NCBI GenBank assembly: GCA_903813345.2
Contig: CAIIXF020000001.1
Span: forward strand, 28,334,001 to 28,398,000
Length of the DNA stretch: 64,000 bases
Reading direction: 5' to 3'
From: Owenia fusiformis
Lineage: Eukaryota
The notes under the pieces were generated by a model that had not been told where the DNA came from, searched no databases, and saw nothing but the letters and a program-made list of their open reading frames with translations. The position numbers and the translations under genes are program-made. This document shows, piece after piece, positions 3,301-6,300 of the stretch. Positions within the stretch are counted from its first letter, which is position 1. Each line of letters begins with the position of its first letter.

Positions 3301-6300
3301 GATAGTCCCAATCCACATATCTGCAAGTTGCTTAATATTAGGAAAATGTTTCCAAATTACACTGTCTCTGCTTTATGCATCTGGAATTCCTGAAATTACC
3401 TACAATATATGCCATAGAAGTAGAATTTCTGTTTGAATACAATTTATATTAAATTGTAACAATATACTTGTTCCATACAATCAGTTTGTAATTTTTCCGC
3501 TGATTTGAATTTCATAACAAAATTACTGCTTCTATGACAAAAATATGCATCAAATCATGTACATGTGGAACAATGTTATAATTTACGTAGTACCAGTAAT
3601 GTATTTATCAATGTATTTATCTGATCTGAATTTATGAAATGATGGTGCCAATAGAGCCTGGGTCTGTTTTAACTGAACTGAAATAAAGAGGAAAGACAAA
3701 ACTACATGATATTGTAACAGAATAAAATCAAGAAATCAAATATTGAACAAAAATGAAATCTTCATAAGAAAGAATTTTTTCTTAATACTGTAGTTGTTAT
3801 TTTTATTCAAATTCGAATTTTAACTTTGGATATTACATAAGTTGTATTTTTATAATTATTATAAACTATATCAAACATTAATAAAATAGCTGATTATAAT
3901 AGTATTCCTGCTTTCAAAGACAACACTTGAATATGAGACACAGTACGTATGTATGTATGTGCATAATTATGAAATAGAAAAAAAAATCATAGTAGAATGG
4001 ACTGAGACAATACTGTACTAGCTTCACTAAAGATGACGGAATGCGAAGATTTGATCTAATCATTTTATTAGTATTCATGCATGTATTGATGGATAAAGCA
4101 TGGAGGATTCGTTTCAAAGCACATCTACAATACAGTACTGGATTTGCAATTACTTTTGTACATATGTGAGTGATCTGTAGTGAACTTGAGGTTTTAATGA
4201 TACCCCAAGTTCAATCCGAGACATTAAAATATGCCTGGAGTATTTCTGGAATAGAAACATGCAGATTGATTGGGGATGTTACGTTTATAGCCCACCCTCC
4301 CTCTGGTCTCGGACCCGACACAACTGTTAACGCGCTCTGTAATATAAAACAAAGGTATAAACCAAATATATGAACAATAAACCAGCATGCAAATACTACA
4401 ACATAGAACCATAAAGGGTAAGAAACAACAAACATACAGAACTAAATGGTCAGCGAAACACAACTGATTCTTAGCTAACTGAAAGTATACCTATAGTCGT
4501 TGTGGCTTCGACTAACCTGTGTTATGATCATACAGTATTCTAGATGTTATAATACGACCACATTGGGAGAAGATACGTTCCAAATCGGCTTGCGTCATTT
4601 TTTGTGTCAGTCCACATATATACAAGTTAGCGCCTTTAATACTCTCGCTACTTGGCCTTGCATACGAAACCTGCCAAAGTAACAGTTATAAGGGGAACCC
4701 GGGTTAGTAAATTTAAAAGAAACAACTTAGAAAGTTTGCAATACCTGTTGTTGGATCGCATAGGATTCTTGAAGTTATTATATTGCCAGCGGGTGAAAAC
4801 ATAGTTTCCAAATCCAACTGAGTCATAGTTTTGGACAGCCCAGATATGTACAAGTTTGCCCCCTTTATGCTTTCACTGCTAGGCCGTGCGAGGGAAACCT
4901 ACACAAAACAGATAAACAGAAACAAAACAAAATAAACAAAAGCAAAATTAAATATGGTAACTGAAATAATACGATAGGAGTTGTGTTGGTCGTCACTTGC
5001 TACTCCCGCCACCATTCATTGTGACATGTTACTGGAACCAATTGTGACATGTTACTAGCACCAAATGTGACAGGTTACTGGAACCAATTGTGACATGCTA
5101 CTGGAACCAAGTCAAGTTACTGGCCCAATTGTGACATGTTACTAGCTAGAATCAGTTATGACATGTTACTGGAACCACTGTAACATGCTACTGGAACCAA
5201 TTGTAACATGTTACTGGAACCAATTTTGACATGTTACTGGAACCAATTGTAACATGTTACTGGAACCAATTTTGACATGTTACTGGAACCAACTGTGACA
5301 TGTTACTGGATCCAAGTGTGACATGTTACTGGATCCAAGTGTGACTTGTTACTGGAGCCAATTATGACATGTTACTGGAACCACGAAGACATGGATACTG
5401 GAACCAGTTTCATGCTAGAGCCACAACCATACAAACTATCTTAACATGTAACAAATATCTTTATGTAAGGCATGAGCAGTTTACACCTTTAAAATGTCCA
5501 TTTCACTAAAAAGTGCAGTGAATACCCAGCGTGAGATAGTTTATATAGCCTGGTCACCCATTCTAAGTTAAAGGCATTCAGTATTGCAGTACAGTTCAAT
5601 ATTAACCAATTTGCCTGAAATCAGCTAGACATTGTTTTTAAATTGATTAGAACTGCAATATTGCCATGGTTCTAATGTACCATAATGACACAACTAGGAA
5701 CGGGCAACCATTGATGCTCAATTACATTGCAGTTTAATACACTGTTCCAGTTTCAAACCTAACTACCAGTATCTCTAGCATAGCTTTCTTCACCGAGAGT
5801 GTTTTTAATTACATGCACTTCCTTTGTATTCTTAGTTATCAATAAAACAATATTTAGAGACAGCGGCAGCCAGAGTCTTAGCATGGTGCCATTAATTGAT
5901 CTAATTAATTATAAAGGTATGAAGCATACCAATGTCTTGCTGGGTTATGATATGGTGATGCTGATAAATGGCTGAGAGTGGATGCTCCTACAGCCATAGA
6001 CATTAGAGACATAGAAGCATAAGCTTGAAACTGGAGCAGTGCCATAGCACATTATCTGTTAATATTCTCAACTAAGAAATTATCATTATTTCAAGCATTG
6101 AAGATCTGAATTTGATACAAAGTATTGTTTTAGGTAGTGGCTATGTAAATAATATTCATTTAAGCTAGTTTTATGCATGTCAGTAAATAGTAGACTACTC
6201 GTAAAATAATGTTACCAGAAAAGCTATAGTAATGTCAATCATGCTTTTTTGCAACAAAGGTTGTCAGAATGATCATTTGCAACCTTTATTTCACTATCAC

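Follow-up and report, generated by a model that had tools for sequence, protein, structure and literature searches.

The DNA analysed here, referred to as the window, comprises 64,000 nucleotides of the annelid Owenia fusiformis (assembly GCA_903813345.2, contig CAIIXF020000001.1, forward-strand positions 28,334,001 to 28,398,000), and our subject is a pair of tandem exons, 4a and 4b, in its neural RNA-binding protein gene elav1. The window is AT-rich animal DNA (GC 0.31-0.41) and carries the 5' two-thirds of elav1 on its minus strand. The translation of exon 4a matched Elav1 of O. fusiformis (QWY04386.1, P0002, 339 aa) at 100% in a protein collection search, and a tblastn search placed residues 1-228 of that protein on four minus-strand coding exons (16104-15924, 7136-7033, 4898-4745 and 300-63) with 88-98% identity per match. 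The window encodes these residues only; the remainder of the gene, including the third RNA recognition motif (RRM3), lies beyond the window start. P0002 has the make-up of the ELAV/Hu family, with an RRM1-RRM2 tandem, a hinge, an RRM3 and a sequence very similar to that of Hu proteins. Pfam assigns three stretches to RRM_1 (E 1e-64), among solved structures the protein is best matched by RRM1-2 of HuC, HuD and HuR (E 2e-75 to 1e-72), and its RRM3 matches ELAV/HuR RRM3 structures (E 1e-38 to 5e-41). The gene is the pan-neural marker elav1 of this annelid, whose lineage is sister to all other annelids, and isoforms of it are not mentioned in the accessible part of the paper that reports both points (PMC8111721).

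Exons 4a (4745..4898, minus strand) and 4b (4517..4670, minus strand) are each 154 nt long, run from phase 0 to phase 1 and are open in frame 0 only. They are separated by an intron of 74 nt (4671..4744, minus strand). Exon 4a, the copy carried by the cDNA and the genome model, is bordered by ...GTGTAG/GTTTCC...ACAG/GTATTG, and exon 4b, which is unannotated in Owenia, by ...TTGGCAG/GTTTCG...ACAG/GTTAGT. The two peptides are identical at 37 of 51 residues (BLASTP E 1e-25) and differ at the other 14, and 104 of 154 nucleotides are identical. By codon, 14 are identical, 23 carry synonymous changes and 14 carry non-synonymous changes, and in the SSESIKGA stretch all eight codons differ synonymously. 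As expected of a tandem duplication, the neighbours are homologous, of equal length and phase, and only 74 nt apart. A tblastn search of the 64-kb window found no third copy; its sole further match, at 16035-15925 (E 7e-5), is the corresponding, homologous stretch of RRM1.

Because 154 does not divide by three, an mRNA with both copies or with neither is shifted out of frame. Joining 4a to 4b gives GFVCKAK and then TAG, a stop after seven codons, and joining exon 3 straight to exon 5 gives GYLKA and then TAG, a stop after five. Reading through the 4b donor ends the protein at once (...NTG, then the stop in GGT TAG). A first-pass annotation, made from the letters alone, had proposed the coordinates, strand, length, splice borders, phases and peptides of both copies, as well as the 14 residue differences, the wholly synonymous SSESIKGA stretch and the two premature stops, and our sequence check and codon count reproduced all of them.

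The splice signals of the two copies are unequal. Thymines make up 38 of the last 60 nt upstream of the 4a acceptor, compared with 32 for exon 5 and 25 each for 4b and exon 3, and the acceptor region of 4a (4899..4960, minus strand) is a long U-rich pyrimidine tract. In the 4a-4b intron the single match to yUnAy is a perfect TACTAAC at 4709-4703. Its branch-like A, at 4704, is 40 nt away from the 4a donor and 33 nt away from the 4b acceptor.

Both copies have the same neighbours. Exon 3 (7033..7136, minus strand; 104 nt, phase 1 to 0) encodes the second half of RRM1 (QSLGYGF...KTIK) and is the shared upstream partner, with joints at 4896/7031 and 4668/7031 (cut +2). Its flanks are ttcag/GTCAGAGC and AAG/gtaaga, and loose ends of RNA alignments fall at 7137-7139. 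The shared downstream partner is exon 5 (63..300, minus strand; 238 nt, phase 1 to 2), which encodes RNP1 and the remaining RRM2 and is joined at 299/4744 and 299/4516 (cut +1). Its end was placed from a loose end at 60, where GTT is in common with the donor, and from tblastn of P0002 residues 147-228. The first coding exon (15924..16104, minus strand) begins at Met1, ends with base 1 of codon 61 and covers beta1-alpha1-beta2 of RRM1. Its donor is G/GTAAGT; the open reading frame continues from ...DKTTG into GKFF, the translated donor, and tblastn of P0002 residues 1-62 lands at 16104-15919.

Some further features of the gene lie outside the twin exons. The Owenia genome model P0235 (CAH1774104.1) has 44 extra N-terminal residues relative to the cDNA protein P0002, and part of this extension is an open frame directly upstream of the cDNA Met, at about 16105-16167 of the window. 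An 8.8-kb intron (7137-15923) separates the first coding exon from exon 3. Mollusc isoforms carry optional inserts exactly at this junction in RRM1, between ...DKPT and GQSLGYG, of 11 residues in Pomacea and of 17 or 39 residues in Octopus. A scan of window 1-17000 gave no Rfam family at gathering score.

Joints of 4a and 4b in RNA

The published cDNA and the sole genome model in the collection both carry 4a only, and the identity of 4b to any protein of the collection does not exceed 86%. RNA evidence comes from four of 21 listed public runs, aligned to window 1-7300. X8 and X9 are Logan contig sets labelled 'RNA?' only, X19 and X21 are raw RNA-seq runs, and the sample identities are coded. 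Word shares in the 17 other runs (1.00 in five, 0.73 in two, 0.40 in eight and 0.27 in one, together with one raw-read run) were not counted as evidence. Despite their label, X8 and X9 contain cDNA, as introns are removed from them exactly.

The joint of exon 3 to 4a was found at a depth of 1210.5 in X8 and 240.3 in X9, and in two reads of X19 and three of X21. The joint of 4a to exon 5 had the same depths in the two contig sets and was crossed by two reads in X19 and nine in X21. Exon 3 was joined to 4b at a depth of 98.8 in X8 and 277 in X9, and 4b to exon 5 at a depth of 277 in X9 and 0 in X8; neither 4b joint was seen in X19 or X21. Thus both 4a joints occur in 4/4 runs, the exon 3-4b joint in 2/4 and the 4b-exon 5 joint in 1/4. 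The introns removed at all four joints have ends that read CT..AC on the plus strand and hence GT..AG on the minus, and the first mate of every raw read lies on the plus strand, consistent with minus-strand RNA. In X9 the two exons form the two arms of one assembly bubble that opens in exon 3 and closes in exon 5, each arm holding about 27 nt of the former and about 25 nt of the latter.

Exon 4a is dominant in three of the four runs. By contig depth, which is a poor measure of expression, the share of 4b is 54% in X9 and 8% in X8, and among the 16 junction reads of X19 and X21 it is zero. The 4a-4b intron is removed in no listed read or contig of the four runs, and neither a 4a-4b joint nor an exon 3-exon 5 joint is listed there, two of the runs being contig sets, which drop rare variants, and the raw reads amounting to 16 junctions. 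The first-pass annotation had named junction reads for exon 3-4a-exon 5 and exon 3-4b-exon 5 as a check and frequent inclusion of both copies as grounds for rejecting the pair. Both chains are present in X9, the exon 3-4b joint recurs in X8, and co-inclusion was not encountered. It had also raised a switch by tissue or stage, and the differing 4b shares fit regulated use, as far as contig depths from coded samples can be compared.

Relative to window 600-5740, the X8 contigs show dozens of intronic differences and a few indels, and no exonic differences are listed. This looks like ordinary polymorphism between individuals.

Conservation and age of the pair

Comparison of 4a with 4b by the Nei-Gojobori method gave a proportion of synonymous differences (pS) of 0.815 (28.7 of 35.2 sites), a value at saturation that leaves dS undefined, and a proportion of non-synonymous differences (pN) of 0.181 (dN 0.207). 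A dN/dS ratio near 1 had been named at the outset as grounds for rejecting the pair; the ratio lies far below 1. Because synonymous sites are saturated while pN is 0.181, the codon comparison indicates that the two copies are old and that both are constrained as protein.

The pair is not confined to Owenia. Among search matches and their 90% clusters, mollusc RefSeq entries contain equal-length isoform pairs that differ solely inside the twin exon, by 6-13 residues, in 17 species groups. These comprise a chiton (Liolophura), gastropods (two Haliotis groups, Patella, Gigantopelta, Pomacea, Littorina, Physella and Biomphalaria), bivalves (Crassostrea angulata/gigas, Saccostrea, Ostrea, Dreissena, Mizuhopecten and Mya) and cephalopods (Octopus bimaculoides and O. 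sinensis). Crassostrea virginica and Batillaria have both versions without an equal-length pair, and Mytilus has a single version in the three isoforms read. An arthropod control of 36 isoforms from seven species groups contained one version per group and no pairs. The pair had been called hidden in the first-pass annotation, which holds for Owenia and does not hold for molluscs, where RefSeq already lists such isoforms.

Both types are also found among spionid annelids. The ELAV1 cDNA of the spionid Malacoceros fuliginosus (P0325) is b-type, and in the same 90% cluster the transcript-derived P0006 and three other sequences are a-type and almost identical to it elsewhere. Among other annelids, Dimorphilus has a b-type and Paralvinella, Lamellibrachia and Phascolion have a-types.

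Two groups of database entries stand apart from these pairs. An 'ELAV4-like protein' of Mya arenaria outside RefSeq (P0001) carries an a copy followed by a b copy with an 8-residue bridge, the same order as in Owenia. The double copy is probably an annotation error arising from tandem exons; the RefSeq models of this species have one copy each. Flatworm ELAV-like proteins (P0123-P0205) include some that are b-like, with Cys19 and Lys/Arg39 and many of them 700-1000 aa long, and others with Ser19. Because these versions are on different contigs, as in two Taenia crassiceps proteins, they may be separate genes rather than alternative exons.

Outside Owenia every a or b label was set by residue 28, in an alignment of 51 columns. 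Owenia 4a is nearest to the a-types of other phyla (84-86% identity) and Owenia 4b to the b-types (86-88%). Identity between the two Owenia copies is 73%, below the best cross-phylum identity of either. Ser19 and Leu28 are present in the a-type of all 17 pairs. The b-types have Cys19 in 12/17, Leu28 in 0/17 and Lys/Arg39 in 15/17. Annelid a-types have ...ILCDP.. in common and annelid b-types GR..YD. A maximum-likelihood tree of 17 a-types, 17 b-types and five arthropod outgroups requires one change between a and b, with support of 88/83 for the b side. When the labelling column 28 is omitted the tree needs two changes (bootstrap range 2-3), compared with a mean of 11.5 for shuffled labels, none of 500 shuffles being as low.

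The origin most likely lies in one duplication before the annelid-mollusc split, with both copies under purifying selection since then, and the alignments and trees give this good, though not conclusive, support. A single ancient origin is favoured because the Owenia pair appears orthologous to the mollusc a/b pair and to the spionid a-type and b-type transcripts.

Exon choice and rival explanations

We consider it highly probable that 4a and 4b are a real mutually exclusive tandem exon pair of elav1, one copy entering each mRNA to give two ELAV isoforms, and that the pair is ancient and shared with molluscs. In the mechanism we propose, the exon would have been duplicated in tandem and exactly one copy would be spliced into each mRNA. 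The frame rule gives any mRNA with both exons or neither a stop within seven or five codons, and such mRNAs would be removed by nonsense-mediated decay (NMD). The 74-nt intron, with its branch-like site 40 nt from the 4a donor, could in addition block splicing of 4a to 4b sterically. Exon 4a would be the default choice and 4b the activated one. A default role for 4a fits because it has the longer U-rich tract and was seen in every run, and use of 4b is probably regulated because its share varies strongly between samples.

Selection of the exons by RNA structure is unsupported. A 250-nt interval that opens at the 4a donor and ends past the 4b donor folds no better than shuffled sequence (z +0.60; 149/200 shuffles as good). 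There are 32 pairs of inverted repeats in 1.2 kb, all short (10-18 nt), and the candidates among them are indistinguishable from chance: I12, between the 4b donor and the branch-site region (11/13); I1, which brackets both exons (18 nt, 78%); and I3, between the 4b donor and a variant 23-nt unit at 5070-5083 (12/14 complementary). The unit belongs to a tandem repeat in the exon 3-4a intron, 120 nt upstream of the 4a acceptor (5018..5383, no strand assigned; 23 nt x 16, 82% matches, Tandem Repeats Finder score 479), whose units are partly self-complementary (GTAACATGTTAC). We regard it as context and not as a proven part of the system.

Several observations weigh against an ancient, productive pair, and some of those from RNA would suit a different role for 4b, that of an unproductive or 'poison' choice which lowers ELAV output, either through an unused donor or through co-inclusion with 4a, and which makes no second protein. 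The raw-read runs contain no read on 4b (depth 0 in bin 4393-4636) beside 16 junction reads for 4a, at low depth. The only 4b contig of X8 lacks the joint to exon 5 and instead runs from exon 3 through 4b and past its donor into the intron as far as 3470, covering 1.05 kb of intron at a depth of 98.8 compared with 21.5 for the remaining intron. Most of the 4b RNA in X8 may therefore be unspliced or truncated, given the immediate stop, and low-level co-inclusion or skipping may escape contigs, from which rare variants are lost. No clear poly(A) signal was found just upstream of 3470, and the contig may represent a splicing intermediate, intron retention or an alternative end. The pyrimidine tract of 4b is also weaker than that of 4a, and autoregulation by unproductive splicing is common among RNA-binding proteins, according to the accessible part of PMC6547761. 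Against this role stands the clean exon 3-4b-exon 5 contig of X9, on par with 4a in depth. Strong purifying selection moreover acts on the 4b peptide (pN 0.18, synonymous sites saturated), a poison exon would not require a conserved protein sequence, and the b-type exons of molluscs, 86-88% identical, are modelled there as full-length coding isoforms. We judge a mainly unproductive 4b improbable. A still smaller chance, practically negligible, attaches to 4b being an assembly artefact, or a piece of another ELAV gene or of a collapsed or expanded duplication. Although the scan for paralogues covered the 64-kb window only, the 4b contigs of X8 and X9 hold 27 nt of this very exon 3 and that of X9 also 25 nt of exon 5, all cut precisely at the splice sites. 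For another 1.05 kb the X8 contig follows the intron of this locus, with 4 other letters and 3 gaps, and five other runs contain every sampled word of 4517-4898, the 74-nt intron included.

The remaining points concern age. In approximately unbiased (AU) tests, Owenia 4a and 4b as sisters gave p 0.081 and 0.049 in two tests and are thus not clearly rejected. The two Mya copies as sisters are not rejected either (p 0.51), a result that is uninformative, and a single clade of all a-types is absent from the best tree yet is not rejected (p 0.38). The alignment has only its 51 columns, and the labels outside Owenia were taken from one of them. Tandem exon duplication is a recurrent process, and the exon might have been duplicated separately in the Owenia lineage and in molluscs, or repeatedly homogenised, in which case the likeness of the types would be convergent and the pair would still be mutually exclusive. 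The tree without the labelling column speaks against this, as it needs far fewer changes than shuffled labels do. So do the closer kinship of each Owenia copy to its own type in another phylum than to its neighbour, the saturation of synonymous sites between 4a and 4b, the motifs shared within each annelid type, and the Mya model with both copies, in which the a-type precedes the b-type as it does in Owenia. Separate origins are accordingly given little weight, marginally more than a poison role, and one ancient mutually exclusive pair is the account we prefer.

Protein effects and comparison with known systems

In an AlphaFold2 model of the 4a cDNA protein the RRM blocks have a predicted local distance difference test score (pLDDT) of 83-93 and linker residues 102-106 and the hinge fall below 50; the predicted template modelling score (pTM) of 0.36 reflects the disordered hinge. 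The exon corresponds to cDNA residues 96-146 and spans, in this model, the end of RRM1 beta4 (exon positions 1-4), the linker (5-13), and RRM2 beta1 (14-19), alpha1 (27-37) and beta2 (40-47). The first-pass annotation had described a swap of the linker and half of RRM2. Both are encoded by the exon, but the linker residues are identical in 4a and 4b. The differences lie in RRM1 beta4 (one, position 3), the last residue of RRM2 beta1 (one, position 19, Ser or Cys), the beta1-alpha1 loop (three, positions 22-24), alpha1 (five, positions 28, 32, 33, 36 and 37), the alpha1-beta2 turn (one, position 39), the end of beta2 (one, position 47) and the beta2-beta3 loop (two, positions 49 and 50).

These positions were compared with a list, given in the accessible part of PMC13635762, of HuR residues that lie no more than 4.5 A from RNA in the crystal structure of the closed form. 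HuR numbering was taken as exon position plus 92, an assignment under which 14/15 listed residue types match and 4ED5 aligns over a stretch of equal length. On the contacts given in that part of the source, all 15 that fall in the exon are identical between 4a and 4b, so none of the 14 differing positions is among them (hypergeometric p 0.003). The earlier proposal of two RNA-binding variants is not borne out by this result. Fine-tuning of RNA binding by the swap may still occur, because positions 3, 39 and 47 adjoin listed RNA-contact residues and position 49 is the counterpart of HuR Gln141, for which a simulation described in the same text shows a hydrogen bond to a base (PMC13635762). The isoforms might thus differ in RNA binding, in partners or in regulation.

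A broader proposal can be put forward only tentatively, and we think it possible but rather doubtful. The exons would form a module common to spiralians and over half a billion years of age, in which the RNA-contact surface is kept and the back face of RRM2 (alpha1, its flanking loops and the Ser/Cys residue) is exchanged. One pan-neural ELAV gene would then make two proteins of equal RNA preference that differ in partners, multimerisation, redox or phospho-control, or localisation, each used at its own stages or in its own cell types. The choice between the exons would perhaps be set by factors that bind the U-rich tract before 4a, possibly ELAV itself.

The pair as such is already present in the mollusc RefSeq isoform models. 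New here are its extension to the annelid lineage that branched off first, in which annotation has missed it; the in-frame splicing of 4b in public Owenia RNA data; the probable orthology of the a and b types across two phyla; and the avoidance of RNA-contact residues by the swap. Full-text searches, which left most subscription journals and supplements outside and so do not prove absence from print, found no published description of this ELAV exon pair. ELAV/Hu proteins are standard pan-neuronal markers and major regulators of neural mRNA processing, and elav1 of annelids and molluscs is handled as if it had only one product. Work in these animals that relies on probes, antibodies, knock-downs or expression constructs may therefore concern two proteins, and the Owenia gene model misses a coding exon. 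The pair is also a natural experiment on which parts of RRM2 vary while the RNA contacts stay fixed. For the study of splicing evolution it offers an old exclusive pair, found across phyla, in a splicing regulator, with a 74-nt intron suited to comparing steric and NMD control.

Mutually exclusive pairs that arise by tandem duplication and are enforced by the frame or by a short intron are a well-known kind. Exons 2 and 3 of alpha-tropomyosin are the classic steric block. Owenia resembles such systems in its 74-nt intron and in a branch-like site 40 nt from the donor, but here the incompatible frames would be enough by themselves. In the Dscam cluster of insects and others like it, pairing of a docking site with selector RNA chooses among tandem duplicated exons. 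The exclusive choice among tandem duplicates is shared with Owenia, but 4a and 4b have no supported competing structure (z +0.60). The Dscam pairing is cited in the accessible part of PMC6915785. According to the parts of the respective papers available, exons 3/Ab of U2AF1 (U2AF35) are likewise a duplicated pair with few residue changes in an RNA-processing protein, but the gene is a vertebrate one, the domain is another and a repression mechanism is described (PMC5224494), and OGDH exons 4a/4b have the same kind of arrangement, a short intron with the branch site near the upstream donor (PMC7969005).

Within the ELAV/Hu family, the hinge microexons of human HuB-D and exons 3a and 4a-d of honeybee elavl2 also diversify a single neural ELAV gene, as far as the accessible portions of PMC8553928 and PMC6915785 show, and some of the variable bee exons touch RRM2. 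These are cassette microexons in the RRM2 beta2-beta3 loop and the hinge, whereas Owenia swaps a whole 154-nt exon for beta1-alpha1-beta2. Skipping of bee elavl2 exon 4 truncates the protein, as stated in the available bee text (PMC8553928/PMC6915785), and the term 'mutually exclusive' does not occur in the part of PMC8553928 at hand. ApELAV1 and ApELAV2 of Aplysia are separate paralogues, according to the portion available of the preprint (bioRxiv 10.1101/2020.08.14.251389).

The same arrangement is found in the mollusc ELAV-like RefSeq pairs, such as those of Pomacea canaliculata (XP_025110595.1 and XP_025110596.1), Octopus bimaculoides (XP_052827081.1 and XP_052827082.1) and Mya arenaria (XP_052774372.1 and XP_052774375.1), in which a 51-residue exon, from VS.ARPSS to the codon before G-LSKGVGF, has two interchangeable versions. 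The mollusc cases are computed isoform models, and their genomic layout is hinted at only by the Mya model that strings both copies together, whereas in Owenia the cDNA and the annotation are without 4b. The Owenia copies differ at 14 residues, more than most mollusc pairs (6-13). Owenia 4a groups with the mollusc a-type, which has Ser19 and Leu28, and 4b with the b-type, which usually has Cys19, a residue other than Leu at 28, and Lys/Arg39.

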